Source: Polaromonas sp. | Lineage (GTDB): Bacteria; Pseudomonadota; Gammaproteobacteria; Burkholderiales; Burkholderiaceae_C | Length of the DNA: 64,000 nt | Direction of reading: 5' to 3' | Assembly: GCA_043769295.1 (NCBI GenBank) | Contig: JAYVJL010000156.1 | Coordinates: 1,913 to 65,912 of the forward strand | Position numbers and translations under genes: made by a program | Shown here: positions 32,029 through 48,600 of the stretch, piece by piece | How positions within the stretch are numbered: position 1 is the stretch's first letter | Layout of the letters: each line of letters opens with the position of its first letter | The notes under the pieces: generated by a model | The model's input: the letters and a program-made list of their open reading frames with translations, nothing else | Databases searched by the model: none | Told to the model about the DNA's origin: nothing

Positions 32029-32691
32029 ATGATCTCATTCAACCTGCACACCCTGCGCCCATCTTTTGCCATTGGCTTTGCTTGCACGCTTTTGTCTACC
32101 GCTGCTTGGGCTGGACGGCCACTGTCGGTGGACGACGCCGATGTCAATGAAGTCGGCCACGGCCATGTGGAGATGTGGTTTGAGCGTACGCTGGGACCCA
32201 GCCGCAGCCTGATTGTGGCACCCGCCTACTCTCCTATTGAAGGCATTGAAATCGCCGCTGCTGTTGCGCGCGACACCACGGCATCCAGCACCAGCATGGC
32301 TGTTCAAGCCAAATGGCGCATCACGCCGGTGCAAGAAAATGGCTGCAACTTTGGCGCATCAGCCAGCTTGGCAAAAACACGGGGTGAATCGGGCAACACC
32401 ACCGCCGTTACGGGCTTGATGACCTGCAACGTACCCATAGGTGCGGTGAATGTCAATGTGGGTGCATTGCGCGCAGCGGGTGTGTCCACCGTGGCAACCT
32501 GGGGTCTGTCGCTGTCTCGTGCATTTGGCGATATCACGGGGCATGTTGAAGCGTTTGGTCAACAACAGGGAAAAACCACATTGCAGGTGGGCGCACGCTA
32601 TGACATCGCCAAAAATATACAGCTCGACGGCACGGTGGGTCGCGGTGATGGTCAAACCCTATACAGCGCAGGCATGAAGGTCGGTTTTTGA
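32029..32691 (+). CDS. Small outer-membrane beta-barrel protein (uncharacterised)
   Basis: Signal peptide ending AAWA, alternating amphipathic strands, C-terminal ...YSAGMKVGF with terminal Phe. Confidence 0.55.
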   Translation: MISFNLHTLRPSFAIGFACTLLSTAAWAGRPLSVDDADVNEVGHGHVEMWFERTLGPSRSLIVAPAYSPIEGIEIAAAVARDTTASSTSMAVQAKWRITPVQENGCNFGASASLAKTRGESGNTTAVTGLMTCNVPIGAVNVNVGALRAAGVSTVATWGLSLSRAFGDITGHVEAFGQQQGKTTLQVGARYDIAKNIQLDGTVGRGDGQTLYSAGMKVGF

Positions 32692-32841
32692 CCGTTTTTG
32701 CCTGATCTACATCAAGCCTCAACACCAACTTTACAAAGCATTACGCAGCCGTCACAGCGCCTTTGCACGGGGTGGTCAAACTGGCCTTCATTCCAGCGCC
32801 GATCTAGACACTGGAAATGTTCAACTCCACAAGGATTTAAG

Positions 32842-33432
32842 ATGAAATTGTCGAATAAACGATTGCTTATCGCTGGCTTGATGGCCACCATTGGTTTTAC
32901 CGCTGTGGCACAAAATGCAACTTCTGGTACACCTCCAGCTGGCCATGGTGGTATGCAGGGTATGCAGCACGGTGACTCTTCAAAAATGCAGGAACGCATG
33001 CAAACCCACCGGCAAGAGCGTGCCACCCAGCGCTTGGCGGCACTGAAAGCCAAACTCAAAATCACCACAGCCCAGGAAGGCGCGTGGACCACCTTCAGCA
33101 CAGCCATGAAGCCACCATCAAATGCAGCTGGCGGGATGATGGGCATGCGCCATGATCCAAAATTAAAAGCTGAAATGGACAAGCTCACCACGCCTGAGCG
33201 CATTGACAAAATGCGTGCTCTGCGCCAGCAACGCATGACCGCCATGAACGCAGAAATGGACAAACGCGCCGATGCCACCAAAGCCTTTTATGGCACACTG
33301 TCATCGGAGCAAAAAGCCGTTTTTGACGCGGTGGCCATGCAAGGCGGTCATGGCCGTTACGGTGGCAAAGGTGAGCATGGCGGTATGGGCGGTGAACAAC
33401 AGGGTCACGGCCGCATGGGCCAGCCAGGCTAA
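32842..33432 (+). CDS. Spy/CpxP-family periplasmic protein (LTXXQ motifs) with Met/His/Gly-rich segments
   Basis: Start at the ATG at 32842 (AAGGA upstream); signal peptide MKLSNKRLLIAGLMATIGFTAVA; LTXXQ-like KITTAQEGAW and LSSEQKAVF; HGGMQGMQHG and GEHGGMGGEQQGHGRMG tracts. Confidence 0.65.
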   Translation: MKLSNKRLLIAGLMATIGFTAVAQNATSGTPPAGHGGMQGMQHGDSSKMQERMQTHRQERATQRLAALKAKLKITTAQEGAWTTFSTAMKPPSNAAGGMMGMRHDPKLKAEMDKLTTPERIDKMRALRQQRMTAMNAEMDKRADATKAFYGTLSSEQKAVFDAVAMQGGHGRYGGKGEHGGMGGEQQGHGRMGQPG

Positions 33433-33459
33433 TCCAGACAAGTCTGGATAAACGCAAGG

Positions 33460-33489
33460 GCGCTGCAATTGCTTGCAGCGCTTTTTTTT
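33460..33489 (+). terminator. Rho-independent terminator between convergent genes
   Basis: gcgctgcaa-ttgc-ttgcagcgc, a perfect 9-bp stem followed by T8. Confidence 0.7.
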
Positions 33490-33853
33490 ATGCCAACAGC
33501 TGCTTTAACTCACCGCTTGCAATCAATTTATCCAGGTCGCCAGCACCACCCACCAGCGTGCCTTTGACGAAGATCATGGGAAATGTCGGCCAGCCGGTCC
33601 ACATTTTCAAGGCGTTGCGCTCACGCCAGGTGTTCAGGTAGTTGCCGTAATCCAGGTCATGGTGTTTGATGCCGACGGCGTCCAGCGCTGCGCGGGCTTT
33701 TTTCGGGAACGGGTTCATGCCCATACCGACGACCACGACAGGATGTGCCGACACAGCCGTTTGCACCTCGGTCACGATGGCTTTTTGGCTGTTGGCCACT
33801 TTGTCCCGAACAGCGGGGTGGATGTGGGATTCGTCTAGTAGCGCACGCGGCAT
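33488..33853 (-). CDS. Glutaredoxin-fold protein with no cysteine
   Basis: VVVVGMGMNPFPKKARAAL..WPTFPMIFVKGTLVGGAGDLDKLIASGELKQLL follows the Grx layout, but the CGFS/CPYC position reads MNPF and the whole protein has no Cys. Confidence 0.7.
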   Translation of the reverse strand: MPRALLDESHIHPAVRDKVANSQKAIVTEVQTAVSAHPVVVVGMGMNPFPKKARAALDAVGIKHHDLDYGNYLNTWRERNALKMWTGWPTFPMIFVKGTLVGGAGDLDKLIASGELKQLLA

Positions 33854-33942
33854 GTCCGGTTCCTCATATATATGGATGATGGCGGATTATCACCGCCCCA
33901 AAATCACGGGTTATAACTAGACCGATTGACCAAGCCGCTTGA

Positions 33943-35151
33943 CTAGGCCGCCTGCAGGGCCTTCACCTGCTCTGCCCGCCGGGATGTTTGCGCACCTGCC
34001 AGGATAAAGCCCTGCAAACGCCCCTCTTCACCCACGTGTTGCCACAAGCCGGGCTCCGCTTCGTGCCAACCGCCGGGCGTGCCGATGTTGGGACTGGCTA
34101 TCAACAACGGCAGAGCTGGCGTTTTCACCGCCACAGGCATGATGGGGAACACCACCTCGGTGCGTTTGCCCGTCAAGGTGACGGCCAAAGCGCGCGCTGC
34201 ATTCATGATGGGCATGACATACGGCAATGTGACGTCGCCGGCGCTGGCGTACTGCGCTGCATCGCCCAAAGCGTAAACGTCGGGGACGCTGGTCTGCAAA
34301 GCGGCATCGACTTTGATGCCACGCTCGCACGCCAACCCTGCCGCCAAGGCTAAACGCGTATCGGCGCGCAAGCCCACCGCACTGAGCACCACATCCGCCG
34401 CCAACACCTCACCACTGGCCAACGTGGCCTGCCAGACCGACGTTGAACCTGATGCCGTGGTCTTGTTAACCGCCTGCACGGTCGTGCCAAAGTGCCAATC
34501 TACGCCTAAATTCGCCAGCGATACCTGTAGCTGTTCACTCGCCTGTTCAGGCAGCAAAGCCGCCAGCGGACGGGTGCATGGGTCCACCACGCTCACCGCA
34601 TAGCCGGCGTTGATCAAATCATTGGCAAACTCACAACCAATCAGCCCCGCACCCATGATGAGCACTTTGGGTGATTTTTTACTACTATTTTCATAGCTAA
34701 CCATGCTTATTTCACGCCGGCTAGCATCACTATTGAGTGCTTTATAAAAGTGTGCGAAGTCTTGCAGGGAATTAACCGACAACACCTGATCTGCCGCATC
34801 GCCTGCCACTGGCACGCGGATGGGCGCAGCCCCTGTGGCCAACACCAATGCGCTGAAGTCATGGCTTCCCTGGCTGGTGGTCAGCGTTTTGACATAGGGG
34901 TCAAAACTGAGCACCTGGGTATGCGCCAATAAGGTCACACCCTGTGTTTCAACCATCTTGGCAGCCGGTGTCACCACCAGTTGCTCGGGTGACTTTTTCT
35001 GGGCAAAAGCGTTTGACAGCGTGGGTTTGGCGTAAAAGTCGCCACTGTCAGCGGTGATCATCAAGATCGGCGTGGTGGTATCAAGCTTGCGGAACTCGCG
35101 CACAGTGGTCCAGGCGGCCAATCCCGCGCCGATGATGATGATGGGATTCAT
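33943..35151 (-). CDS. Rubredoxin-NAD(+) reductase-like FAD-dependent pyridine nucleotide-disulfide oxidoreductase
   Basis: MNPIIIIGAGLAAWTT and VLIMGAGLIGCEFANDL dinucleotide motifs; directly downstream of the rubredoxin gene. Confidence 0.8.
   Translation of the reverse strand: MNPIIIIGAGLAAWTTVREFRKLDTTTPILMITADSGDFYAKPTLSNAFAQKKSPEQLVVTPAAKMVETQGVTLLAHTQVLSFDPYVKTLTTSQGSHDFSALVLATGAAPIRVPVAGDAADQVLSVNSLQDFAHFYKALNSDASRREISMVSYENSSKKSPKVLIMGAGLIGCEFANDLINAGYAVSVVDPCTRPLAALLPEQASEQLQVSLANLGVDWHFGTTVQAVNKTTASGSTSVWQATLASGEVLAADVVLSAVGLRADTRLALAAGLACERGIKVDAALQTSVPDVYALGDAAQYASAGDVTLPYVMPIMNAARALAVTLTGKRTEVVFPIMPVAVKTPALPLLIASPNIGTPGGWHEAEPGLWQHVGEEGRLQGFILAGAQTSRRAEQVKALQAA
34679..34725 (+). 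repeat. Forward copy of the dispersed repeat, in frame inside the rubredoxin reductase gene
   Basis: ttactactattttcatagctaaccatgcttatttcacgccggctagc; read on the minus strand as ASRREISMVSYENSS. Confidence 0.6.
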
Positions 35152-35160
35152 TAGGTTTGT

Positions 35161-35325
35161 TTAGATTTCTACTACTTCAAAGTCAGCTTTGGCCACGCCG
35201 CAATCTGGGCATGCCCATGCGTCTGGCACGTCTTTCCATACCGTACCGGCAGCAATGCCGTCTTCTGGGCGGCCTGCGGTCTCGTCGTATACAAAGCCGC
35301 AAACGATGCAAATATATGTTTTCAT
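35161..35325 (-). CDS. Rubredoxin (54 aa)
   Basis: Below the ORF-track size cut-off. My translation: [54 protein letters not shown], with both CxxCG knuckles. AGGAAA lies 5 nt upstream of the ATG. Confidence 0.9.
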
Positions 35326-35407
35326 GTGTTTTCCTGAAATATGTTGTGATGTGTTGAGTTAGGTCGAACTGGGCGTGATTGTCTTACATAACAAAGAACA
35401 GAGCCGA

Positions 35408-35902
35408 TCAGGCCGTGGCTTTGACCGTGTCCAAACGGGCTTGGTAGTGCGCAGCGTGGCGCTCCTCCACTTTGGCCAAGGCTGCAAAACGCTTTTGCGC
35501 TTTGTCCAGCATGGTTTTGAACTGGGCGGCGTGGACTTTGCTTTCTTCAATCTGCTCATCCATCTCGGCGACAGCGGCGGCATTGCCCTCTGCTTCAGCT
35601 GTTTTGCGGAAACCGGGGTACATCTCGGTGTATTCGTATGTTTCACCGTCGATGGCGATCTGTAAAGCCTTGGCCGGTGTCATGGTGGCCTTGGGATAGA
35701 GTAAATCCAGATGGCCAAAGGCATGCATGACTTCCTGGTCGGCTGTGGCTTCAAAAGCGACTGCGGTGTCAATATCACCGGCTTCACGCGCCAATTTGGC
35801 GAAATAACGGTATTTAATATGCGCCATGGACTCGCCGGCAAAGGCAGATTCCAGATTGGCGATGGTTTTGATTTCGGGACGGCTTGCAGTGGCTGTGGTC
35901 AT
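35408..35902 (-). CDS. Rubrerythrin-family ferritin-like diiron protein (no rubredoxin domain)
   Basis: NLESAFAGESMAHIKYRYFAKLAREAGD..FEATADQEVMHA..GETYEYTEMYP..AKVEERHAAHY. Confidence 0.85.
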   Translation of the reverse strand: MTTATASRPEIKTIANLESAFAGESMAHIKYRYFAKLAREAGDIDTAVAFEATADQEVMHAFGHLDLLYPKATMTPAKALQIAIDGETYEYTEMYPGFRKTAEAEGNAAAVAEMDEQIEESKVHAAQFKTMLDKAQKRFAALAKVEERHAAHYQARLDTVKATA

Positions 35903-35990: not shown

Positions 35991-36182
35991 ATAATTAAAT
36001 CCAATTGGTTTTAACTAACAGATCAATAGTGGCTATCTTTTAACGGCGCACTATGGACTTGATTCTCAGTTTTTTCAAAGCAAGTTTTGTCGGACAGCGG
36101 TTTGTACGGGTATCATTATTTCTCGTTGCTTTAAGCCTTTCCCAGCACTTACTCACTTACCAATACACAAAGCGAGGTCACC

Positions 36183-37229
36183 ATGGCATTGATGGACTTT
36201 CTCAAGAAACAGTTTATTGACATCCTCCAGTGGACCGAGGACAGCGATGGTACGCTGGCTTGGCGCTTCCCGATGGCTGAGATGGAGATTCAAAACGGGG
36301 CGTCGCTCACGGTGCGTGAGTCGCAACTGGCCGTTTTTGTCAACGAAGGCAAGGTCGCCGACGTCTTTGGCCCGGGCACCTACAAGCTCACCACGCAAAC
36401 CCTGCCGGTGCTCACCTACCTGAAAAACTGGGACAAACTGTTTGAGTCGCCCTTCAAAAGTGATGTCTACTTTTTCAGCACCCGCCAACAGATCGACCAA
36501 AAATGGGGCACGCCACAACCCATCACCATCCGCGACAAGGACTTTGGCGCGGTGCGTCTGCGGGCTTTTGGCAATTACAACTTCCGCATTTCCGACGCCA
36601 AACTATTCCACACCGAGATTTCAGGCACCCGCGACAGCTACGGCGTAGAAGAGCTGGACGGTCAACTACGTGGTTTGGTGTTGCAAAACATCAGCAACGC
36701 GATTGCCAGCAGCGGCATTCCGTTTTTGGATCTCGCTTCCAATCAAATGACCTTTGCGCAGGCACTTACAACGCAACTCGCACCAGAATTTGCCAAAATT
36801 GGCTTGAAACTGGAAGGCATGACGGTGCAAAACGTTTCGCTGCCGGAAGATCTGCAAAAAATCCTCGATCAAAAAATCGGCATGGGTATGGTCGGCGACG
36901 ACATGGGCAAGTTCATGCAGTACCAAACCGCACAGGCGATTCCGAAATTTGCCGAAGGCTCCGGTGGCGGCAGCGGCATTGCTGGCGACGCCATGGGCTT
37001 GGGCGCAGGTTTGGCGATGGGACAGGTGCTGGCGCAAAACCTTCAAGCAGGCTTGAGTTCGGGAACGAACCAAACAGCAACAGCGGCCAGTGCGGCGGCT
37101 GCCGCTGTGATCAAACCAGAAGACATCATGGCCACGCTGGAAAAACTGGGTGAACTGAAAGCCAAAGGCATCTTGACGCAAGAAGAGTTTGACGGAAAAA
37201 AGGCAGAGCTGTTGAAAAAACTGGTTTAA
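36183..37229 (+). CDS. SPFH/Band-7 domain protein (B. subtilis YdjI-like) with C-terminal SHOCT-like helix pair
   Basis: MALMDFLKKQFIDILQW..VRESQLAVFVNEGKVADVFGPGTY..AVRLRAFGNYNFRI. Gly-rich linker, then C-terminal LEKLGELKAKGILTQEEFDGKKAELLKKL. Confidence 0.8.
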   Translation: MALMDFLKKQFIDILQWTEDSDGTLAWRFPMAEMEIQNGASLTVRESQLAVFVNEGKVADVFGPGTYKLTTQTLPVLTYLKNWDKLFESPFKSDVYFFSTRQQIDQKWGTPQPITIRDKDFGAVRLRAFGNYNFRISDAKLFHTEISGTRDSYGVEELDGQLRGLVLQNISNAIASSGIPFLDLASNQMTFAQALTTQLAPEFAKIGLKLEGMTVQNVSLPEDLQKILDQKIGMGMVGDDMGKFMQYQTAQAIPKFAEGSGGGSGIAGDAMGLGAGLAMGQVLAQNLQAGLSSGTNQTATAASAAAAAVIKPEDIMATLEKLGELKAKGILTQEEFDGKKAELLKKLV

Positions 37230-37247
37230 ATCTATATTTAGATAACT

Positions 37248-38753
37248 TTGGCCACTGATTCCCTTCAGCGAAGCTACCGCGCGCCCTGCCCCGGCTGTGG
37301 CGCACCGGTTGAGTTTCGCAACGCGCAGTCCACCCATGCGGTGTGTGGCTATTGCCAAAGCACAGTGGTGCGCAGTGGCGACACGCTGACGCGCACCGGT
37401 AAGATGTCAGAGCTGTTTGACGACTTCAGCCCGCTGCAGCTCATGACCTCCGGCAAGTGGGGAGACAAACCCTTCACCCTGATTGGCCGGCTGCAATACC
37501 AGTACGCCCAAGGCACGTGGAACGAGTGGATAGCCGGGTTTGACGATGGCACAACAGGCAGCTTGAGCGAGGACAACGGCGCGTTTGTGTTTTCGACAAT
37601 ACTGGCCACATCAAGCGCCATCCCTGCAGCCACCAACTTCATCGTTGGCAAAACCACGGCCATCAACGGCAAGTCATTCACCGTGGCGGCCAACAACACC
37701 GTGTCGCTCTTGTCGGCACAAGGCGAATTACCCAAACTGCCAGCATTAGGTACACCGTTTGAGGTCGTGGAGCTGCGTGGTGACCAGGGCGATGTGGTCA
37801 GCATCGACTACAGCCCAGCACCCCCTTTGCCGCCAGCGGTTTCAAGTGGCCGTGCTGTCCTGCTGGAAGATCTGCAGCTCAAAGGTTTGAAAGACGAGCA
37901 AACCAAGACCGAATCGGGTCAGCAATTTGCCTGCCCCAACTGCGCCGCTTCCTTGCAAGTCACGCTAACCTCCACCAAAAGCCTGACCTGCCGCAGTTGC
38001 AACAGCATCATCGATGTGTCGCAAGGGGTGGCCGGGCAACTTAACCACGCGCTGCAAACTGACCCTGTCGCGCCCTTGATCGAGTTGGGCAGCACCGGTC
38101 AACTGCAAGGCGTCAGCTGGCAATTGGTCGGCTTTCAGCACCGCATGGGTTATGAGGCGGATGACCCCGATGAGCATTTCGGCTGGACGGAGTACCTGCT
38201 CTACAACCAAAAGCGCGGCTTCACCTTCTTAATCGACTCAACCGAGGGCTGGAGCCTGGCCACGCCCACCACGGGTGCGCCCACGCTGTCGTCCAACGGT
38301 GCTACCGCCACCTATTTGAGCAACCAATACAACCGCAAATACAGTTACAAAGCCGAAACGCAGTATGTGGCTGGCGAGTTCTATTGGCGGGTCGAACGCG
38401 GCCAGCTGAGCAACAACACCGACTTTGAGAAAGGCGCGGCGCTGCTGTCGCGCGAGGAAACGTCGAATGAGGTGACCTGGTCCATGGGCAGCAAGCTCAG
38501 CAGCGCTGCCGTAACCAAGTCATTCAATTTGAAGGAGGGTGCGCTGGACGGTGGCGGCAAAGACGCACTCAAAGCCAGTGACGCCAAACCTCTGAGCAGC
38601 ATTGCTGGAATGGGCTGTGGCACCATCGTGATTTTGATATTGATCTTGTTGCTTTTTTTGTTTTTGATCAGCCGTTGCTCCAGTCCCGACAGCACTGGGC
38701 GTAGCTCTGGCGGATCTTATGGTGGATTTAGCTCTGGCGGCGGGCATAAATAA
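37248..38753 (+). CDS. Zn-ribbon/DUF4178-type protein with C-terminal TM helix and Gly/Ser tail
   Basis: CPGCGAP..CGYCQS and CPNCAAS..CRSCNS ribbons. FTLIGRLQY..WNEW and WQLVGF..W.EYLLYN blocks are typical of DUF4178. TM segment GCGTIVILILILLLFLFLI. TTG start at 37248; no nearby ATG. Confidence 0.7.
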   Translation: MATDSLQRSYRAPCPGCGAPVEFRNAQSTHAVCGYCQSTVVRSGDTLTRTGKMSELFDDFSPLQLMTSGKWGDKPFTLIGRLQYQYAQGTWNEWIAGFDDGTTGSLSEDNGAFVFSTILATSSAIPAATNFIVGKTTAINGKSFTVAANNTVSLLSAQGELPKLPALGTPFEVVELRGDQGDVVSIDYSPAPPLPPAVSSGRAVLLEDLQLKGLKDEQTKTESGQQFACPNCAASLQVTLTSTKSLTCRSCNSIIDVSQGVAGQLNHALQTDPVAPLIELGSTGQLQGVSWQLVGFQHRMGYEADDPDEHFGWTEYLLYNQKRGFTFLIDSTEGWSLATPTTGAPTLSSNGATATYLSNQYNRKYSYKAETQYVAGEFYWRVERGQLSNNTDFEKGAALLSREETSNEVTWSMGSKLSSAAVTKSFNLKEGALDGGGKDALKASDAKPLSSIAGMGCGTIVILILILLLFLFLISRCSSPDSTGRSSGGSYGGFSSGGGHK

Positions 38754-38787
38754 TGCTCGACGCTTCAACGTTTTTAAGGAGGTTGTG

Positions 38788-39009
38788 ATGGAACTCATGG
38801 GATTAAAACTAGGTGCGATCGTTGGTTCGGTCTTGTTTGCCTTGATTGGCGTGCTGATTTTTTGGTTGTGCTTTGTCATCATCGACAAACTCACGCCCTA
38901 CGATTTATGGGTCGAAATTGTGGAGAAGCAAAACATCGCACTCGGTATCGTCGTCGCGGCCATGAGCCTGGGAGTTTCCATCATCGTGGCGGCAGCCATC
39001 CATGGTTGA
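38788..39009 (+). CDS. DUF350 (YjfL-like) small membrane protein
   Basis: ATG at 38788 with AGGAGG 5 nt upstream; two TM helices (FIIDKLTPYDLW..NIALGIVVAAMSLG). Confidence 0.7.
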   Translation: MELMGLKLGAIVGSVLFALIGVLIFWLCFVIIDKLTPYDLWVEIVEKQNIALGIVVAAMSLGVSIIVAAAIHG

Positions 39010-39015
39010 TGTGGA

Positions 39016-40551
39016 TTGAAGTCTCTTAAAGCCAGTCCGCTAGAAGTTACCCTCCTCGCCAGCGTCTTGGTCGTCGCGGCTTGTGGCCTGGTGTACGAGC
39101 TGGCCGCTGGCGCGCTGGCCTCGTATTTGCTGGGCGACTCGATTCTGCAGTTTTCCACCGTCATCGGCTGCTACTTGTTTGCCATGGGTGTGGGCTCGTG
39201 GTTGTCTCAATTTTTTGACCGTCAACTGCCCGCGCATTTTTTACGGATTGAACTTTTGGTCGCCTTGGCCGGTGGCTTGCTGCCGGCGGTTTTGTTTTTA
39301 GCCAATGCCTATTTCCCCGGCAGTTTCAGGTGGGTGCTCTACGGGCTGGTCGCCACGGTAGGTATTTTGGTGGGTTTGGAGATTCCGCTGGTCATGCGGA
39401 TTTTGAAACGCAACGTAGCCTTCAAAGATGTGGTCTCGCAAGTGCTGACCTTTGATTATTTGGGGGCGCTGGCCGTATCGGTGGCTTTCCCCTTGATTTT
39501 GGTGCCGCAATTGGGCTTGATCCGCACGGGCTTGCTGTTTGGGCTGTTGAACGCGGCCGTGGCGGTCTGGGCGCTGTGGCTGTTCCGGTTTGAGCTGCGC
39601 CAGTTCAAGGCACATGCACTGGCTTGTGGTTTGACCTTGGCGGTTCTTGCTGCCGCTTTTTTGGGCGCAAACCATATCACCACGCTGGCGGAGGACAAGT
39701 TTTACCAGGACCGCATCGTCTTCACCGCCGCATCGCCTTATCAGCGCATTGTGGTGACGCAGGGCAAGCTGGGACACCGCTTGTTTTTAAACGGCAACCT
39801 GCAGTTTGCCGAGCGGGATGAATACCGCTACCACGAGGCTTTGGTTCACCCGGCGATGGCGGCTTTTTCAGCCGCAGGACCGAAACGTGTCGCCGTTCTG
39901 GGCGGTGGCGACGGCATGGCGGTGCGGGAGATTTTGAAGTACCCCAGCGTCGAGTCCGTCACCTTGGTGGAGTTGGACCCGGCCATGACCCGGCTGTTTT
40001 CAGAACAACCCACCTTGGTCCAACTCAACGGCGGCGCACTCAAATCACCCAAAGTCAAAGTCGTCAACACCGACGCGTTTGCCTGGCTTGATTCAGGTAC
40101 CGACTTATTTGACGTGATCATCATCGACTTCCCCGACCCGACCAACTTCTCCATCGGCAAGCTCTACACCAACTCGTTTTACGCGCTTTTGGACAAACGC
40201 CTCTCAGCCAGCGGTTATGCAGTGATTCAAACCACCTCGCCCCTGGTGGCCCGCAAAAGCTTTTGGACCGTGGCGCAAACGATTGAATCCGTCGGTTTAA
40301 CAGCCACGCCCTACCACGCGCATGTACCCAGCTTTGGCGAATGGGGGTTCATCATCGCCAGCCGCCGGCCTTGGCACGTTCCGGCAAGCTTGCCTGCGGG
40401 ACTGCGCTTTTTAGACCTGCCCAGCCTGCCTGTGCTGTTTGACTTCCCGCTCGACATGGCGCGTGTGCCCACCGAGGTCAACCGCCTGTCCAACCAGGTT
40501 CTGGTGACGACCTACGAGCAGGAATGGGGCACAGTGGCACATTCGCCATGA
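39016..40551 (+). CDS. Membrane-anchored polyamine aminopropyltransferase (spermidine/spermine synthase-like)
   Basis: About 7 N-terminal TM helices, then YQRIVV..LFLNGNLQFAERDEYRYHEALVHP..VAVLGGGDGMAVREIL..IIIDFPDP; TTG start at 39016. Confidence 0.8.
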   Translation: MKSLKASPLEVTLLASVLVVAACGLVYELAAGALASYLLGDSILQFSTVIGCYLFAMGVGSWLSQFFDRQLPAHFLRIELLVALAGGLLPAVLFLANAYFPGSFRWVLYGLVATVGILVGLEIPLVMRILKRNVAFKDVVSQVLTFDYLGALAVSVAFPLILVPQLGLIRTGLLFGLLNAAVAVWALWLFRFELRQFKAHALACGLTLAVLAAAFLGANHITTLAEDKFYQDRIVFTAASPYQRIVVTQGKLGHRLFLNGNLQFAERDEYRYHEALVHPAMAAFSAAGPKRVAVLGGGDGMAVREILKYPSVESVTLVELDPAMTRLFSEQPTLVQLNGGALKSPKVKVVNTDAFAWLDSGTDLFDVIIIDFPDPTNFSIGKLYTNSFYALLDKRLSASGYAVIQTTSPLVARKSFWTVAQTIESVGLTATPYHAHVPSFGEWGFIIASRRPWHVPASLPAGLRFLDLPSLPVLFDFPLDMARVPTEVNRLSNQVLVTTYEQEWGTVAHSP

Positions 40552-42215
40552 AACGCCGCCAGTTCATTGCTGCAGCCAGCGCCTTGCCGCTTCTGGGTTG
40601 CAATAAACCGCCTGTGATTGAAGACATCCAGGGTGGTTTTACCGGCGTAGATATTGAACACGGGCACTTGTTACGGGACGCAAAATCGTGGACAACGCCT
40701 TCTCAAACCCGAAAAACCAAAGTCATCATCGCCGGTGGTGGTGTGGCCGGTTTGGTGGCTGCGCGGGCTTTGCGTTTGCAAGGCATCAACGATTTTGTAA
40801 TGCTGGAACTGGAAGACCACGCCGGCGGCAACAGCAAGGGCGGCAGCGTCAACGGCATCACCTGCCCGTTGGGGGCGCATTACCTGCCCGTCCCGTCTGA
40901 ACAAGCCCCCCATGCTGCTGATTTGCGTGACATGCTGGAAGAACTGGGCGTACGTCAGCGCGTTGCGGGGCGTTGGACGTATGACGAACGGGTGTTGTGC
41001 CACAGCCCGCAAGAACGCCTTTTTTTCAAGGGCAGTTGGCAAGACGGGCTGCTGCCTGTGCAGGATGTGGGCGCAGGCACGCTGGCGCAGTACCGCCAAT
41101 TTGCCAAACTGGTTGAGGAAGCCCGAAAACGCAGCAACTGGTCCATTCCAGCCTCAAATTCGACCTTAACCGGCGTAGATATTGCCTTAACAGCTATCAC
41201 ATTTATAGCGTATCTAGATCAGCAAGGGTTGACCGATCCGCAACTGCGCTGGTATTTGGATTACTGCTGCCGCGACGATTACGGCGCAGGTGTCAGTACC
41301 GTCTCCGCCTGGGCAGGCATGCACTACTTTGCCAGCCGCCACGGTTTTCATGCACCAGGCGCAGAGATGTCAGAACCTTATGAGCGTGAAAGTGTGCTGA
41401 CCTGGCCCCAAGGCAATGGCTGGATTACGCATCAGCTGGCTTTGCCACTGGGTGAGCGCTTACTTACAAAACGCCTCGTCACCCGCATTGAAGTGATGAA
41501 GCATGGCGTGGAAGTCGATGTGTTTGATACAAGCACCCGGCAAACCGAGCGCTGGCAGTCGGCGCGCTGCATCGTTGCGCTGCCTATTTTTGTGGCGGCT
41601 CGGGTGGTGAAAAACCCGCCCGCTGTGTTGCAAGCGGCCGCCAGGCAAACCCGCTACGCCCCCTGGCTGGTCGCCAACATCCACATCGACCAACCTTTGC
41701 ATGACCGCTCTGGCGCTGCGCCGAGCTGGGACAATGTGATCTACGGCGCTGCGGGTTTGGGCTACGTGGATGCCCAGCACCAAAGCCTGAAACCGGTGCC
41801 CGGCGCCACAGTGTTGACGCATTACCGCGCTTTGGGCGATAAGGCGGACGGTCGCAAACAGTTCTTGGAGCGCCCCTGGAGCCGCTGGCGGGACGAGATT
41901 TTGGCGGAATTATCAACAGCCCACCCCGATTTGGTGGCCAAAACCCGCCGCATCGACATCACCCGCTACGGGCACGCAATGGCGGTTCCTGTTCCAATTA
42001 GCCCGTCAAACCCGTTAAATCTGTCAAACAGTGGGTTTCATGCTCAAATTCGACCTCAGCCGGCGTATTTATTGCCTAGACTGCTATTAAAAAAAGAGCA
42101 AAAAGAAGGCCTGCCGCAGCCACTGTTGTTTGCGCACAGCGACTGGGCGGGTTACTCGGTGTTTGAAGAGGCCTTCGCACTGGGTCATGCTGCGGGGAAG
42201 TTGGCATCAAAATAG
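40548..42215 (+). CDS. Exported FAD-dependent oxidoreductase, amine-oxidase-like
   Basis: The ATG at 40548 overlaps the upstream stop (ATGA). MKRRQFIAAASALPLLGC is a twin-arginine signal with a lipobox Cys; KVIIAGGGVAGLVAARAL is a dinucleotide motif. Confidence 0.75.
   Translation: MKRRQFIAAASALPLLGCNKPPVIEDIQGGFTGVDIEHGHLLRDAKSWTTPSQTRKTKVIIAGGGVAGLVAARALRLQGINDFVMLELEDHAGGNSKGGSVNGITCPLGAHYLPVPSEQAPHAADLRDMLEELGVRQRVAGRWTYDERVLCHSPQERLFFKGSWQDGLLPVQDVGAGTLAQYRQFAKLVEEARKRSNWSIPASNSTLTGVDIALTAITFIAYLDQQGLTDPQLRWYLDYCCRDDYGAGVSTVSAWAGMHYFASRHGFHAPGAEMSEPYERESVLTWPQGNGWITHQLALPLGERLLTKRLVTRIEVMKHGVEVDVFDTSTRQTERWQSARCIVALPIFVAARVVKNPPAVLQAAARQTRYAPWLVANIHIDQPLHDRSGAAPSWDNVIYGAAGLGYVDAQHQSLKPVPGATVLTHYRALGDKADGRKQFLERPWSRWRDEILAELSTAHPDLVAKTRRIDITRYGHAMAVPVPISPSNPLNLSNSGFHAQIRPQPAYLLPRLLLKKEQKEGLPQPLLFAHSDWAGYSVFEEAFALGHAAGKLASK
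41168..41209 (-). repeat. Reverse copy of the dispersed repeat, in frame inside the FAD oxidoreductase gene
   Basis: aaccggcgtagatattgccttaacagctatcacatttatagc, read as TGVDIALTAITFIA. Confidence 0.55.
42056..42099 (-). repeat. Reverse copy of the dispersed repeat, in frame inside the FAD oxidoreductase gene
   Basis: tcagccggcgtatttattgcctagactgctattaaaaaaagagc, read as QPAYLLPRLLLKKEQ. Confidence 0.7.
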
Positions 42216-42218
42216 CAT

Positions 42219-42644
42219 TCAGTCCAAATCCTCCATGGCCAGCAGATGGTACCGCTGTCCATAGGAGAAAGGAACGACCCGCACCAGCGTCATAATGTGT
42301 TCGGTCTCCTCGTCGGAATGCACTTTCACCATCATCGCGCTGTGCCCTTCACGTGCTAATTTGATATATTTGTGGACAGTGGCACCTTCCGTGCCAACAG
42401 ACGGCATCACGACATCTGACTCCTGGTCGGCTTTGCCAATATCCTTCAACACCTGTTGCGGCGTCAACAGCATGACAACGCGCTCTTCCGATTTCTTGTT
42501 TGGATGATCTGCAAGGTAGCTGTCTACTGCATGAGCCACCTGCGAAGCATCATCTGCGTTGGGAAACATGACAAAAGCATAGCCCTTGGGATAAAAAACG
42601 CCGCTCATGGTCAGCATGTCCGGGGTGAGTTGGAATGTTTTCAT
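42219..42644 (-). CDS. Hypothetical protein (141 aa), downstream of the glucan synthase gene
   Basis: Clean ORF 24 nt after the ndvB-like stop on the same strand; I recognise no family. Confidence 0.5.
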   Translation of the reverse strand: MKTFQLTPDMLTMSGVFYPKGYAFVMFPNADDASQVAHAVDSYLADHPNKKSEERVVMLLTPQQVLKDIGKADQESDVVMPSVGTEGATVHKYIKLAREGHSAMMVKVHSDEETEHIMTLVRVVPFSYGQRYHLLAMEDLD

Positions 42645-42668: not shown

Positions 42669-45600
42669 TTACACAACAAAATCCTGCGTCTGCAAGCCTT
42701 GAACCAAGAGCACCGACCGCGCAGGGAGGTCGGCCAAGGACAACCATTGCCCCTCTGACAGGGTGCGGTCTGGTTTGAAGTCCCCTGCAGTCATCATACC
42801 TACACGCTGCCAGCGTATATGCACCATCCTGCCTTGAATATTGAGCTTTAAATCAACAAAAGTCCACTCTGCGGGCAGGCAAGGAAACAGTGATATTTGT
42901 CCATGTCGCACTTGTAAACCCAGCAAGTTTTCAATACCAGCGCGGTACAGCCACGCCGCAGAGCCGGTGTACCAACTCCAGCCGCCACGCCCCACATAAG
43001 GTGCTGCGCCGTAAATATCGCCCGCCATGACATAGGGCTCAAGTTCATACAGCGGGCCACGCTGGGGGTCAGCATGACGGTGTGCTGGACTGAGTGCTTT
43101 GAAGCTCTCCCAAGCGGCTTCAGCGTCCCCCGTTTTTGCTTGAGCCATCATCGCCCAGACGGCGGCATGCGCGTATTGACCGCCGTTTTCACGCACGCCT
43201 GGCGGGTAGGCCTGGATATAGCCCGGGTTGTTTTCAGACTTGGAAAAAGGCGGTGCTAAAAGCCGCAGCAAACCAGCGTCACGGTCCATCAATTCCCGAT
43301 TCATGGCGCGCATGGCCGGCTGAGTGAAGTGATCGCTCGATGCGTTTGAGAGCACTGACCAGGCCTGGGCGATCAAATCAATCCGGCATTCGGCATTGGC
43401 GCTGGAACCCAAAGCTGCACCATTGTCAAAAAAGGCACGCCGAAACCACTCCCCATCCCAACCATGGCTGTGAACGGCGGTGATCCAGCCCTCACGGCTG
43501 CTGCGCCATGTTGCGGCACGTTCGCCCTCCCCACGCGACTCCGCCAGCGGTGCAAAGCGATCCACCACGGCACACAAAAACCATGCCAGCCAGACCGATT
43601 CGCCACGCCCCTCATGCCCCACCCGGTTCATGCCATCGTTCCAATCGCCAGTCCCCATGAGCGGCAAACCATGCGCGCCGGTAGCCAGGCTTTTGTCGAT
43701 GGTCAGGGCGCAATGCTCATACACAGAGGCGGACAGCTGACTCACCAGCGGCGTATAGTACGCGTCCTCAGCACCCTCGGCAATCGCTGGGCCTTCGATG
43801 AAATGCACGTCCTGATCCAGGATATTCGCATCACCGGTGACCTCAACGTAGTGCGCGCAAGCGTATGGCAACCACAGCAAATCATCTGAAAAATGGGTTC
43901 TGACCCCTTCGCCGCTGGGCGCATGCCACCAATGCTGCACGTCTCCTTCTGGGAATTGTCGCGATGCATTCAGCACAATCTGGTCATGCAGGCGTTGCGG
44001 GTCACTGACGGCAAAAGCCATGGCATCCTGCAACTGGTCTCGAAAGCCAAAGGCACCACCGGCTTGGTAAAAGCCTGCTTTGGCCCATAAACGCGAGGTC
44101 AAGGTTTGATACAGGAGCCAACGGTTCATCAGCGCGTCAAACAAAGGGTCGGGCGACTTGACCTGGATCTTCTCAAGAACGCCTGACCAATGGTTTTTTA
44201 CAGAATCAAGTGCATGCGCCACATCCCTGGTTTGCCAAGTCTGGGCCAATTGCTCAGCCTGTGCGGCATCGGCGGCATAGCCAAGCATGAATGTCAGATT
44301 CAAACGCTGTCCTGCTTGTATTGTTAAATCACCAAACAGCGCTGCACCCGGATCTAAACTGCCTGCCATTTTTTGATTCAAGCTGACAGGCATGACCAGC
44401 TGACCCGCTGAATTAAAAAACTCGCTGCGATCACACGTCCACTGTATGGGCTCGGGCAGTCCGGTCAACGCCAAAAAGGCCGTGCTTCCACCAAACCCGG
44501 AGCGGCTTTCGCATTGCTGCGCATAAAGCACGGGCATGTTCTTGCTTTTCCAGACGCTTACCGTCCGCCTGTCTGTGCGGTTTGCACCCATTTGCCACTC
44601 GACCATGCCGTGCACACGCAGATGCCGTTTTTTAGACCCGGCGTTGTGCAGCTGTACCCGGACAAACTTGACCGAATCATTGATGTCGACGAAAAAAGTG
44701 GTTTCAAGCTCAAGTTGATCATGCAGACACTCAAACACGCTGTAGCCCTGACCATGCCGTACCCTGAAAGACGGCACCGATCCGCTTTCGGTACTTGGCG
44801 TTAAAGCAAGCAGCGCATGTGTCGCCCGGTCTTGCAAGATGAAATGCTCGAAACCTGGGTCTTGCACCGGATCGTTGGACCAGGGCGTCAACTGCTGCAA
44901 GCGACTGTTGACCGCCCAGGTGTAACCCGCACCAGCTTCTGACACTTGACAGCCAAACGATGCATTTGAAATGACATTCACCCAAGGGCGCATAGGCCGT
45001 TGCGATGCATCAATGTGAAACTGAAACTCACCCGTCACAAAATCAAAAACACCCTGTGGTTCTTTGGGAATCTCCTTCTGCCTGGATGTCGTGCTGAGCG
45101 AGGAAGTCAAAAATGACGTGGTTATCGCCTCTTTGCCAGGTTGATTTTTCACAGTGTCACGTTGTGACAGAATTTGTTGTGCCAGAGGACGACCGTCCGC
45201 AACAAGAACGATGCGCGCCAGAACCGACAGAGTTGCGCGTTCAGACGGGCTGACTTCACTTTCAGACAGCAGATAAAACCCCGCGATGTCGCTGCGCGGA
45301 AAGCTATGCATGGATTGTTGAATTGTACGGTCACGCAGGTTTAAAATATCCCGTTGCAAAGGCATCAGGTAGGAGTTGATTTCACTGTTCAAAATCACCA
45401 GATCAACCGCCAACCCACAAAAACTCCACCAAGGTTGGGCGCGCAACAGGGTATGAACCAGGCCAAGCCCATGGTTGGAATGAATTCGGACAAGGATGAT
45501 GGGCTTATCCCCCGACAGACCAAAGCGCCAGAGCTGACGCAAGTCAAGCGAGGCACGTTCAGTGACCGGTCTGCCAGAGGTGTAGATCAAGGCGGTATTC

Positions 45601-48600
45601 AGATCTTGCAGGGCGGCATTTTCGTCGGGAGCCAGCCCCAGGTCTCGTATACGTACCTGCGCCAGGGTTGCGGCCATGCGCTTGGCGCGTTTCACATGCA
45701 TGGGCTGCAAATATTTATCAATGCGTAACATCAAATCGTTAGCATTGCCAGCGGCCGCTGTTGCGAAACTCAGGCGGGCAATAGCACCAGCGGGTATGCG
45801 CACTTGCACGCGCAACCCTGCGACGGGATCAAGTCCATTGATCGGGGAGCCATCTACGGTCCTGGCTTCGACCTGTACCGCCGGCTGCGTCACCGTTCGA
45901 CCACGCCCTACAAAAGAGCGCCTGTCTGACACGAAGTCGACAGCACCCACATTGACATCTGACTCAGCCAGAAAATGTGCCGCAACCAAGGTTGGGTCGC
46001 CCTGTAAACGCGGCTTACGCGTCAACATCATGGCGCGCCACTCAGGAAGCCAGTCCGTCTGCACGAATAGGTTGGAAAAAGCAGGATGTGCCTCGTCCGC
46101 CCGTGCGTCCGCCAGCACGGCTTCAAAGTATGAAATCACCTCCAGGTTCATCTCAACAGTGGACAGGTTCTGGAGTGTCACCATCCGCAATTCCGTGTCA
46201 TCTTCTGGACTGACCAGAACCGTGGTGTTGATCTCCAGTTTTTTGGATATCGCCTGGTATAACACCCGGTCTGCCAGAAAGGTCGCCTTGTATTGCCAGT
46301 CAGGATGTGGGGCAGGATGGTAGGTGATGGACGACAGGCGGGCATCTTTGTCTGCACGAACGTAAATAAACGAACCATACTGATCACGCAGCAGATCATC
46401 ACGCCAGCGCGTAATGTTGTGCGTGGCATTGTGGCCATGCCATCGGCTCACACCAGCTCCATTTGCACGCAATACAACGCTATAACAACCATTTGACAAA
46501 AGCTGCGTAGGCTGTTGACCGGTTGCTTGAGGATCAATATCTCGGGCTTGATACAGTTTTGTCTGCTCTTGAAATTGAGACTCGGGCAGAACACGTGGAT
46601 CGGCGGTCTTGATGATCTGGCGCGGTGTTTTTTCATGCAAAAGCGAATCAAAGGCCTGTACCAAAGGTGCACTGGCAAACCATCTGCGTGGTGCCTCGTC
46701 ACACAGCACGTTGCACAATGCGACCAAAGACATGCCTTGATGATGGGCCATGAAGGTGTTCACCAGACTGAAAGCCTGCGCGTCCGCTTGTCTCGACACC
46801 GTAAAATCCACCGCATCAATAAAACCGAATTTCCCACGTGCGCCGAGCAAAGTGAGTTTTTTTAAATTTGCTACCGCCTGCTGTGGTTCAAACATGCCCG
46901 CCATGACGCTGGCGTAGGGTGCGACAACACGGTCAAGGATGGGCGTGCGTCGCAATGCAAGTCTCGGCACGCCAAACGGCGAATATTGATAGGCGAGTGT
47001 ATGGTCTTGCGCAAAATAGGCTGACTCCGAAACACCCCAAGGCAGCTGTTCAGAATCGCCGAATGCCTGCTGCTCCATCACCGCCGCGTGTCCACTGACG
47101 TGCAGCAAGCCTTGATCTGGCTCCGTCATGATGAGCGAAGGCATCAAATACTCAAACATAGATCCCGACCAAGACTTGAGCCCTGGTGTCACACCAACCG
47201 TCAAAAATGAACGTCCAAGGGCAGCCCAATGCCGTTTGGGAACGTCGCCCTTGGCTATCGCCAAAAAACTGGTCTGTCTGGCCTCTGAGGCGATCAAATC
47301 GTAATAGCTCTTATCGAGTATTTTCTCGTGTACGCGCAACCCGATATGAAACAGATGACGCTTGGCGCTGTACAGACCGCTAAAATTCATGTCTTGAAAC
47401 AAACGTGTACAGCGTTCAGCCAGAAGTCGAAGCGCGGCTGCGTGTGCCAACTGTATTTCCTCCGTTTCACCGCTTTCAACACACTGTGAAAACTGCTGGC
47501 AAGCTTGCGCCAACGTCAGCAAGTGGCCCGCCAAATTTCCGCTATCGACGGTAGACACATAGGCAGGCATCAGCACTTCCAGCGAGCGCGTTTCATACCA
47601 GTTGAACAAATGTCCCTCGTTTTTAGGCAGTTTTTCAACGGTATCCAGCGTGGCTTGTAGCCGGTTGATGAGGTCAGCCGTTGAAATCCAGCCAAATTCA
47701 CGGGCACAGGCTACGGCCAAAAGATACAAACCAATATTGGTAGGAGAGGTCCGATGCGCGATGATGGGCTCAGGGTCCATCTGCAAATTGTCGGGCGGCA
47801 GATAATGATCATCGGGGCCGACTGTGGTTTCGAAAAAATGCCATGTCTGCAAGGCCAATGCGAGCAAATATTCGCGGTCATTCTCTTTAAGTTTGCAGCT
47901 GATTCGGCGATCAACTGGTTTGCTGGCCCAATAGGCTGTCAGTGGCGCGGCCGCCCATAACAGAAACATGCCCATACCCAGCCATGGATATGGGCTCATC
48001 ACGGCGGCGGCGGCCAGCGCACAACCCAAAATGGTCGTCGTTGCATGGCTGCGGACAAAAACCAATAAGGTATATCTCGCAGTAGCCTGTGCTTGCGCAG
48101 CGGTTGTCCATTCCAATAAATTCTTGTGGCTGACGGCCATACGCCAGACAGCTCTAAAAATCGCATCCAACATCAGCCTCGCCTGCGCCAAAAGCTGGCT
48201 CAACTGCCAAAAGCTTGCGACAACACTTCGTAGGAGATCACGCAGACCGACATCAAAAAAGTGCGGCCATGCAATGCCACGGCGCGTCGGCACCAATCCT
48301 GCCAATGCACCTACACCCGGCCCAACCCAGTAAGCGCAAAAAACAAGACCTACAGCTGTCACCCATGGTATGGATGCGGTAAAAACAACCCAGGCCAACA
48401 AGAAGAAAGATGCAGGAGCGATCAAGGAACGGCGTAGATTATCCAGCATGCGCCACGCACCCAATGCGTCAATCCCAAAATTTCGTGAACGACAGATGAA
48501 GGGGATCAGCTGCCAATCCCCTCGTGTCCAGCGATGCACGCGCGACGCGGCTACGCCAGCATGATGCGGTTGATCTTCCATCACGATGACGTCGCTTGCA

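Follow-up and report, generated by a model that had tools for sequence, protein, structure and literature searches.

The 64,000-nucleotide stretch of Polaromonas sp. DNA analyzed here (contig JAYVJL010000156.1; the whole stretch is called the window) contains five co-directional genes, g1 to g5, at positions 36,183 to 42,215, and sequence comparison identifies them as one conserved bacterial envelope operon. They encode an SPFH protein, a Zn-ribbon protein with DUF4178 modules, a small DUF350 membrane protein, an aminopropyltransferase of the spermidine synthase (SpeE) type fused to a membrane domain, and an exported flavin amine oxidase. At the end of the second protein lies a sixth element, a transmembrane (TM) helix followed by a short tail that terminates in lysine. 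This element is new here; its lysine-ended tail was missed in the original prediction for this DNA, which was made from the sequence alone and described five genes. The best explanation of the whole that we can offer is transfer of an aminopropyl group to a tethered acceptor at the envelope, followed by its oxidation, an account that is plausible while falling somewhat short of probable.

36183-37229, plus strand: g1, SPFH-SHOCT protein, 348 aa, ATG start
37248-38753, plus strand: g2, Zn-ribbon/DUF4178 protein, 501 aa, TTG start
38616-38750, plus strand: sixth element, fused to g2; TM helix at 38616-38672 and Gly/Ser/Tyr tail at 38673-38750
38788-39009, plus strand: g3, DUF350 protein, 73 aa, ATG start
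39016-40551, plus strand: g4, membrane-fused SpeE-type aminopropyltransferase, 511 aa, TTG start
40548-42215, plus strand: g5, twin-arginine translocation (Tat)/lipobox flavin amine oxidase, 555 aa

Conservation of the cassette and the C-terminal lysine tail

Examination of the open reading frames (ORFs) within the window places all five genes on the plus strand with the small gaps and the ATGA overlap that had been described for them: 18 nt separate g1 from g2, 34 nt separate g2 from g3, 6 nt separate g3 from g4, and g4 and g5 overlap by 4 nt. Two of the five, g2 and g4, start with TTG, again as predicted. The ATG of g3 lies 7 nt downstream of a Shine-Dalgarno sequence, AAGGAGG, and the mechanical ORF start of this gene is at 38719. 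All domain assignments that had been proposed pass curated thresholds in Pfam and NCBIfam profile searches.

Related loci were collected by scanning one genome per GTDB species with a SpeE alignment, and at least 595 species contain a relative. Counts out of 80 given below refer to the best 80 of these relatives, all of which are from Burkholderiales, whereas the breadth beyond that order comes from plasmid and chromid records and from a further search that took the Gemmatirosa oxidase as its starting sequence. The window proteins fall in Comamonadaceae, and the closest locus listed belongs to a Polaromonas metagenome-assembled genome (MAG) with a SpeE that is 92% identical. The genes for SPFH, DUF4178, DUF350, SpeE and the oxidase occur in cassette order at 53 of the 80 loci, with most of the others located on truncated contigs, and the set behaves as an operon, as was anticipated. 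On a Rhodoferax contig all five genes are found in identical order between entirely different flanks. Conservation of the five-gene arrangement is far beyond chance.

More distant loci keep the same parts in rearranged form. A Novosphingobium plasmid carries, in order, a helix-turn-helix gene, SPFH, DUF4178a, DUF4178b, a 48-aa tail ORF, DUF350, SpeE, the flavin adenine dinucleotide (FAD) oxidase and speD, the gene for S-adenosylmethionine (AdoMet) decarboxylase. A Gemmatirosa kalamazoonensis replicon and a 1.18-Mb MAG contig (L089) share the order Band_7_1, AdoMet_dc, two DUF4178 genes, tail, DUF350, SpeE and oxidase. Longimicrobium and a metagenomic contig (L098) have the set without SPFH, and Tritonibacter has only two DUF4178 genes, a small ORF, DUF350 and SpeE. 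Burkholderia cenocepacia and Ralstonia solanacearum divide the genes between two units, one with DUF350, SPFH, DUF4178, a small ORF and speD, the other with SpeE and the oxidase. These halves are directly divergent in B. cenocepacia (L007) and approximately 9 kb apart on the R. solanacearum megaplasmid (L004, CP022785.1, 1543000-1564000), separated there by an IS3 transposase gene and a branched-chain amino-acid ABC transporter. Gene content across lineages therefore indicates that the full system has seven parts, of which SPFH is frequent but dispensable. Of the 80 loci, 29 have speD no more than 10 kb away; it is always on the opposite strand there, and in about 10 it follows the oxidase gene directly in convergent orientation. 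ORF clustering of the same loci revealed no further conserved neighbor or regulator, the rest being clade-specific synteny or GC-rich ORF noise.

The end of g2 reads ...SSGGSYGGFSSGGGHK-COOH, with the TM helix followed by the tail ...RSSGGSYGGFSSGGGHK. An AlphaFold2 (AF2) model of g2 shows a helix at residues 457-475 and then a disordered tail. The protein ends in GGHK in 115 of 120 homologues and in GSHK in 5. A census counted a K-terminated tail, either fused or encoded by a separate ORF, at 78 of the 80 loci with both DUF4178 and DUF350, and L089, one of the two misses, ends in K by eye. In loci whose DUF4178 protein already includes a membrane hairpin or periplasmic domain, the TM helix plus tail is encoded by a separate gene (48-64 aa) between those for DUF4178 and DUF350. 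The separate tails end ...GGFSGGHK in Ralstonia, ...SSYGSHK in Burkholderia, ...YTGPSHK in Novosphingobium, ...NSNRVK in Tritonibacter, ...ARFRHGK in Gemmatirosa, ...RYMGGK in L089 and ...RYVGGK in both L090 and L098. Thus, the last residue is kept across phyla while the remainder of the tail diverges strongly, and no Pfam or NCBIfam family matched the element. Because the approximately 440 N-terminal residues of g2 contain Zn ribbons and no signal peptide and are followed by a single TM helix, the tail should be periplasmic; the basic N-termini of the free tail mini-proteins fit the same N-in, C-out orientation. In related loci the tail gene always adjoins the DUF350 and SpeE genes, and where both the tail element and SpeE are present the DUF350 gene lies directly between them. 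In most Comamonadaceae homologues of g2 a Cys-rich linker, SRCSRCDPNVENCSSS, separates the TM helix from the tail. This linker has been lost in the window copy (ISRCSSPDSTGRSS) and is therefore not essential.

Domains and predicted topology of the five proteins

The first protein, g1, matches Band_7_1 over residues 27-235 (1.5e-77, 260.5 bits against a cut-off of 24) and has a C-terminal SHOCT domain at residues 318-344 (2.2e-8), both in Pfam, with a Gly/Ala-rich hydrophobic stretch at approximately residues 255-285. It is 55% identical to its Ralstonia orthologue and 44% identical to that of Novosphingobium, and a search of solved structures returned no relative. These features identify g1 as a predicted cytoplasmic SPFH protein of the YdjI/SamI type. 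In Bacillus subtilis, YdjI/SamI is a Band_7_1 SPFH protein that is recruited by YdjG/H and stabilizes PspA at the membrane (PMC8581546; bioRxiv 10.64898/2026.02.06.704340). The window cassette was correctly said to be free of PspA: neither PspA nor DUF2170 was detected in the cassette or in the neighboring window ORFs scanned, and the cassette contains no TPM domain of the YdjH kind. The SPFH proteins of Gemmatimonadota-type operons (L005:6028-7089; L089:3809-4825) end in a Zn ribbon, like B. subtilis YdjI, and not in SHOCT, indicating that the C-terminal module for membrane or partner binding is interchangeable.

Two stretches of g2 match DUF4178 (1.2e-24, Pfam), each preceded by a CxxC...CxxC ribbon, as follows:

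37287-37355, plus strand: g2 Zn-ribbon 1, CxxC...CxxC
37449-37859, plus strand: g2 DUF4178 module 1 (Pfam)
37932-38000, plus strand: g2 Zn-ribbon 2, CxxC...CxxC
38085-38501, plus strand: g2 DUF4178 module 2 (Pfam)

The AF2 model contains two corresponding beta-rich modules, residues 68-204 and 283-417, with a predicted local distance difference test score (pLDDT) of 80-93. Sequence search found no solved relative of DUF4178, and fold search found none at E<0.01, the best match having an E of 0.026. Homologues of g2 are abundant, comprising 3517 clusters at 90% identity. In loci beyond Burkholderiales, two genes take the place of the single DUF4178 gene (L003:9651-10913; L005 ~8101-9438; L089:5830-7119; L006:8233-9525), with a second half composed of a TM helix, a beta-rich domain of about 130 aa that is predicted to be periplasmic, and a second TM helix. 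The Comamonadaceae protein has lost this TM/beta-domain/TM part and is fused straight to the Lys-tail element.

A two-TM membrane protein corresponding to half of YjfL, g3 matches DUF350 at 1.9e-13 (Pfam). The adjacent g4 matches Spermine_synth at 4e-34 (Pfam) and the NCBIfam model PRK03612, 'polyamine aminopropyltransferase', at 672 bits against a cut-off of 472, and is composed of two parts:

39016-39663, plus strand: g4 membrane part, seven hydrophobic segments
39700-40368, plus strand: g4 catalytic domain, residues 229-451, which match solved SpeE structures

Residues 229-451 align with Thermus SpeE (1uir) at 5e-33 and with thermospermine synthase (6bq2) at 3e-32. The motifs RDEYRYHE, GGGDG and DFPDP do not vary among homologues from four bacterial classes, and given that the closest solved relatives are polyamine aminopropyltransferases, g4 is predicted to be an active transferase dependent on decarboxylated AdoMet (dcSAM). 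Four acidic residues in the TM domain, E28, D41, E122 and D147, are invariant or conserved among homologues. In all six divergent homologues, Lys and Arg together number 7-10 in the N-terminus and loops 2, 4 and 6 and 0-1 in loops 1, 3 and 5; by the positive-inside rule, the N-terminus and the even-numbered loops should be cytoplasmic. If the seventh segment spans the membrane, then the catalytic domain would face outward, like the tail and the oxidase.

The last protein, g5, matches Amino_oxidase (1.2e-12, 48.4 bits against a cut-off of 19.8) as well as NAD_binding_8 in Pfam, and has both the FAD-binding GxGxxG N-terminus and the two-domain amine-oxidase fold. Its N-terminus, MKRRQFIAAASALPLLGC, contains a twin-arginine motif, a hydrophobic region and a lipobox Cys:

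40548-40601, plus strand: g5 signal and lipobox

The twin arginines, R3 and R4, do not vary among 97 homologues that range from Proteobacteria to Gemmatimonadota, and in 10 close homologues R3, R4, F6, L15, G17 and C18 are all invariant. Therefore, g5 is predicted to be a Tat-exported, periplasmic lipoprotein. For its AF2 model (pLDDT 86.5) the best solved fold is putrescine oxidase (2yg3; E 1e-22, TM-score 0.74), and further close folds include MAO-A/B, cyclohexylamine oxidase, protoporphyrinogen oxidase and the spermidine dehydrogenase SpdH. Oxidase homologues without other cassette genes nearby also occur (L088:4934-6439; L097:7001-8515), with 54-59% identity to the Gemmatirosa enzyme, and a Bryobacteraceae MAG supplies one example of a lone oxidase. 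The gene had been said to carry two repeat insertions. No tandem repeat was found in it; what does exist is one 52-nt direct repeat in two copies, and the clade-specific insertion abuts only the second:

41146-41197, plus strand: g5 direct repeat copy 1, 52 nt, encoding the conserved segment IPASNSTLTGVDIALTAI
42036-42087, plus strand: g5 direct repeat copy 2, in the variable loop of the C-terminal region, adjoining a clade-specific insertion (about 12 aa)

Identity between the copies is 81%, they are read in different frames, and no such repeat would be expected by chance. The repeat could be an old internal duplication.

Proposed aminopropyl transfer to a tethered acceptor and its alternatives

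That the cassette is a functional aminopropylation and oxidation module of the envelope acting on an acceptor other than a polyamine is, in our estimate, slightly on the probable side. In the mechanism that we propose, SpeD would supply dcSAM, and the seven-TM (7TM) SpeE would move the aminopropyl group to a tethered, non-canonical acceptor at the cytoplasmic membrane, with no bulk spermidine or spermine being made. Among possible acceptors we favor the epsilon-amine of the tail's final Lys, and this particular assignment we regard as doubtful. Like putrescine, the Lys side chain offers a primary amine on a four-carbon chain, so that aminopropylation would leave the protein with a spermidine-like end. 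Cleavage of the resulting secondary amine would then fall to the periplasmic oxidase, by the kind of reaction known from polyamine oxidases and LSD1; it would act as the remover or turnover enzyme and release H2O2 and an aminoaldehyde. The acidic TM residues of SpeE, together with DUF350, may assist the positively charged donor or product across the membrane. SPFH and DUF4178 may organize or gate the complex, in the manner of YdjI/SamI with YdjG/H, and may stand in for the CesT-PspA dyad of sister operons.

A counterpart of the tail is found in one group of sister operons, represented by Escherichia coli yjfIJKLMC, which encodes YjfI (DUF2170), the PspA-like YjfJ, YjfK (DUF2491), YjfL (DUF350), YjfM (DUF1190) and the ATP-grasp enzyme YjfC, now annotated as a peptide-spermidine ligase following Pederick et al. 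2023. DUF350 is the only one of these families in the window cassette, where DUF2170, PspA, DUF2491, DUF1190 and ATP-grasp were not found. The DUF1190 gene adjoins the DUF350 and ligase genes, and in five of six ATP-grasp-type operons the DUF1190 tail, which is rich in Gly, Ser, Tyr and Arg, ends in Gly-Gly: ...ARGHWGG in E. coli, ...SFSFGG in Rhizobium, ...GFSTGG in Pseudomonas syringae, ...GGSHGG in Aureimonas and ...SKGWGG in Photobacterium. DUF1190 lipoproteins of yjf-type operons are encoded at L091:7388-8026 (E. coli yjfM), L092:4129-4722, L093:9429-10196, L095:5212-5781 and L096:10179-10823. Their position beside the peptide-spermidine ligase gene makes them candidate physiological substrates of YjfC. 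These sequences suggest a pairing in which Lys-ended tails would go with the aminopropyltransferase and Gly-Gly-ended tails with the peptide-spermidine ligase, which amidates peptide carboxylates with spermidine; by either chemistry the protein would come to display a spermidine-like group at its end. Extended to its fullest form, this would be a writer and eraser system for a new protein modification, in which SpeE aminopropylates the tail Lys to give a spermidine-like terminus at the periplasmic face and the periplasmic oxidase removes the group, the yjf-type ligase reaches an equivalent end by adding spermidine to a Gly-Gly tail, DUF350 handles the tail or cation in both, and SPFH or PspA couples the state of the tail to membrane remodeling. 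So complete a scheme is rather unlikely.

Several points weigh against transfer to a tethered acceptor. All of its functional steps are ones that we infer from sequence. If the SpeE domain is periplasmic, dcSAM would have to be available outside the cell, for which we know of no precedent. Should the seventh segment of g4 not span the membrane, the protein would instead have six TM helices and a cytoplasmic catalytic domain, and with the tail periplasmic the enzyme and its proposed substrate would be on opposite sides. The same topology problem applies to the sister operons, as the ATP-grasp ligase is cytoplasmic and the DUF1190 lipoproteins are exported; in addition, the Halomonas DUF1190 tail ends ...GGWGS, in a record in which the ligase gene looks frameshifted. 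The second Asp of DFPDP, which in canonical enzymes holds the distal amine of putrescine, would in g4 face the alpha-carbon and carboxylate of Lys. The donor side has its own difficulties, because speD is on the opposite strand in the Burkholderiales loci that have it and is absent from the 64-kb window, where tblastn with two SpeD sequences gave nothing at E<0.1. Finally, the lone homologues at L088 and L097 indicate that the oxidase family is not restricted to the cassette.

The original prediction held that the cassette makes and oxidizes a polyamine. Spelled out, this reading has a free polyamine made at the membrane by the fused SpeE, exported via its TM domain, and catabolized or back-converted by the periplasmic oxidase, with SPFH, DUF4178 and DUF350 serving only to organize or regulate. 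The product could be spermidine or a polyamine particular to the lineage, for example an aminopropylated form of 2-hydroxyputrescine, cadaverine or diaminopropane. This is consistent with the PRK03612 match of g4 above its cut-off, with Thermus SpeE and thermospermine synthase as the closest solved relatives, and with g5, whose fold is nearest putrescine oxidase and whose matches include the Tat-type spermidine dehydrogenase SpdH. The conserved acidic TM residues would suit a path for cations, and speD is linked in other genomes. However, Betaproteobacteria hold mainly putrescine and 2-hydroxyputrescine, and a free product leaves no role for the invariant C-terminal Lys tail or for its Gly-Gly counterpart in the ATP-grasp operons. 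Furthermore, a passage of PMC12803844 (JBC 2025), citing Li et al. 2019, states that bacterial fusions of a membrane protein to an aminopropyltransferase-like domain were shown experimentally to be uninvolved in spermidine or spermine biosynthesis. That statement on membrane-fused homologues runs against the predicted polyamine synthesis, as does the lack of speD in the window, and we consider the free-polyamine account fairly unlikely.

If SpeE acts on something other than a polyamine, then the acceptor could belong to the envelope itself. The enzyme would aminopropylate the head group of phosphatidylethanolamine, an aminolipid, or a lipopolysaccharide or glucan substituent, the TM domain would flip the product, and the oxidase would remove the group, so that surface charge is tuned under stress. 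A multi-TM domain joined to a soluble transferase is an architecture that parallels MprF, and SPFH and PspA systems act on the state of the membrane. The phrase 'aminopropylation of other substrates', raised by Ravi et al. in the sections of PMC11237479 on related operons, would also cover such a role. However, the sequence gives no pointer to a lipid, ORF clustering of the 80 loci revealed no conserved lipid-metabolism gene nearby, and both the tail and the DUF4178 protein are left unexplained; a lipid or envelope modifier is accordingly quite improbable. Least of all do we favor the absence of any shared function, whether as an SPFH/DUF4178/DUF350 membrane-stress unit that happens to lie beside an unrelated SpeE and oxidase pair or as an anti-phage defense island. 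The halves do form separate transcription units in Ralstonia and Burkholderia, and the oxidase is alone in some genomes, yet the genes co-occur across three phyla despite rearrangements and are overlapping or tightly spaced. In a PADLOC scan, g4 gave a generic match to the methyltransferase fold of mad2 and g5 a marginal match, and no other defense-system hit was returned. Coincidence or defense is thus highly improbable.

Tethered-acceptor transfer, if correct, would tie polyamine chemistry to the SPFH/PspA membrane-stress machinery, and the pairing of Lys and Gly-Gly tails provides a concrete substrate candidate for two orphan enzyme families. The species-level genomes with the 7TM-SpeE gene, at least 595 in number, include pathogens of plants and opportunistic ones (R. 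solanacearum, B. cenocepacia), and a related core is present in Mycobacterium tuberculosis at what we take to be Rv2599-Rv2601. The operon also bears on a question raised by Li et al. 2019, as cited in the passage of PMC12803844 mentioned above, namely the role of AdoMet decarboxylase and membrane-fused aminopropyltransferases if it is not polyamine synthesis. Should the model prove wrong, the cassette would count simply as one more ordinary example of an operon type already catalogued in silico. Relative to the original prediction, whose observation is confirmed and whose interpretation is partly supported, the present analysis adds the synteny census, the SpeD link, the literature against ordinary polyamine synthesis, and the Lys tail with its Gly-Gly counterpart. 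The role in membrane stress that had been proposed was overstated, having been drawn solely from analogy with SPFH and PSP proteins.

Flanking genes and known systems

Upstream of g1 a single promoter candidate is proposed tentatively:

36087-36116, plus strand: sigma-70-like promoter candidate, TTGTCG-18-TATCAT, 9 of 12 matches, approximately 67 nt upstream of g1

Consensus scans for promoters and terminators gave a number of sites in the region that is not above chance. At gathering thresholds Rfam produced no match anywhere in the window, and no credible Rfam element was found in the 280-nt leader of g1. The flanking genes are unrelated to the cassette and differently oriented. Upstream and divergent to it are rubrerythrin, rubredoxin-reductase-like and glutaredoxin genes, with the rubrerythrin gene divergent from g1. 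They belong to a redox and envelope-stress neighborhood at 32029-35902 that contains a porin-like ORF, an LTXXQ (CpxP/Spy-like) periplasmic protein, glutaredoxin, a rubredoxin-reductase-like flavoprotein and rubrerythrin. The rubrerythrin and redox genes suggest a link to H2O2 from the g5 oxidase; they are not kept beside the cassette in Rhodoferax or other loci. Downstream, a 141-aa ORF on the minus strand (42219-42644) is convergent to the cassette at the place where many relatives have speD. We rejected it as a diverged speD, given that it has no Pfam match and no homologue in approximately 90 related loci, and it may be an orphan gene or no gene at all. Beyond it, also on the minus strand and convergent, 42669-50885 encodes a 2738-aa protein with GH94 supersandwich and catalytic domains and a glucoamylase-like domain. 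This protein resembles cyclic beta-1,2-glucan synthase of the NdvB/ChvB type, an envelope and osmoadaptation gene, and is not syntenic with the cassette in other genomes.

We found no published experimental function for the cassette, which agrees with the original prediction. The combination itself, however, has already been described. The sections of PMC11237479 (Ravi, Anantharaman, Aravind, Gennaro et al., mSystems 2024) on these operons report CesT/Tir-PspA operons with a 7TM-fused spermine/spermidine-synthase-like protein, DUF350, a lipoprotein and DUF4178, and section 19 includes a PspA-free variant in which Band-7/2TM/SHOCT replaces CesT/Tir-PspA, with AdoMetDC and a polyamine oxidase. 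Judged by those sections, the cassette is this variant apart from the missing speD, and the operon type is not new. The window shares with it Band-7 followed by a hydrophobic stretch and SHOCT, 7TM-SpeE, DUF350 (YjfL), DUF4178 and the oxidase; unlike the window, the operons of Ravi et al. include AdoMet decarboxylase. Their description there is purely computational, assigns no product or function, and proposes only monitoring of polyamines or the aminopropylation of substrates of another kind, and the C-terminal Lys tail is not mentioned in the sections on these operons. Compared by description, the Shewanella oneidensis SO_3763-3769-type operon has the same DUF4178/DUF350/7TM-SpeE triad and likewise an exported protein with a low-complexity region (the Ctha_1186 lipoprotein), but it has PspA and a CesT-like chaperone where the window has SPFH, and no oxidase is listed for it.

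The links that had been drawn to B. subtilis YdjI/PspA (PMC8581546) and to E. coli yjf are correct. Similar to g1 and g2, the B. subtilis pspA-ydjGHI (samGHI) operon combines a Band_7_1 SPFH protein with a Zn-ribbon, membrane-anchored partner, YdjG. However, g2 carries DUF4178 modules whereas YdjG has an NTF2-like domain, such that g2 is only an architectural analogue in its Zn-ribbons and TM helix; the window has no counterpart of PspA or of the TPM protein YdjH, and the B. subtilis operon has no enzymes. With canonical SpeD/SpeE systems and the Thermus and ACL5-type aminopropyltransferases, g4 shares the catalytic fold and motifs, including the acidic residue of GGGDG that specifies dcSAM. 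It differs from canonical SpeE by its N-terminal membrane domain of seven segments, and homologous fusions are reported, in the passage of PMC12803844 cited above, not to contribute to spermidine or spermine. Flavin amine oxidases such as putrescine oxidase, MAO, PAO/SMOX, LSD1 and SpdH have the fold of g5, and its N-terminal sequence matches SMOX, PAO and LSD1. Identity to known members is only 14-16%, and g5 is set apart by its Tat signal and lipobox. Lastly, E. coli yjfIJKLMC differs from the window in having an ATP-grasp ligase, a Gly-Gly tail end, and PspA with CesT, and in lacking SPFH, DUF4178 and the oxidase, but the two have in common DUF350, an exported protein with a C-terminal tail rich in Gly, Ser, Tyr and Arg, and an enzyme of polyamine conjugation.

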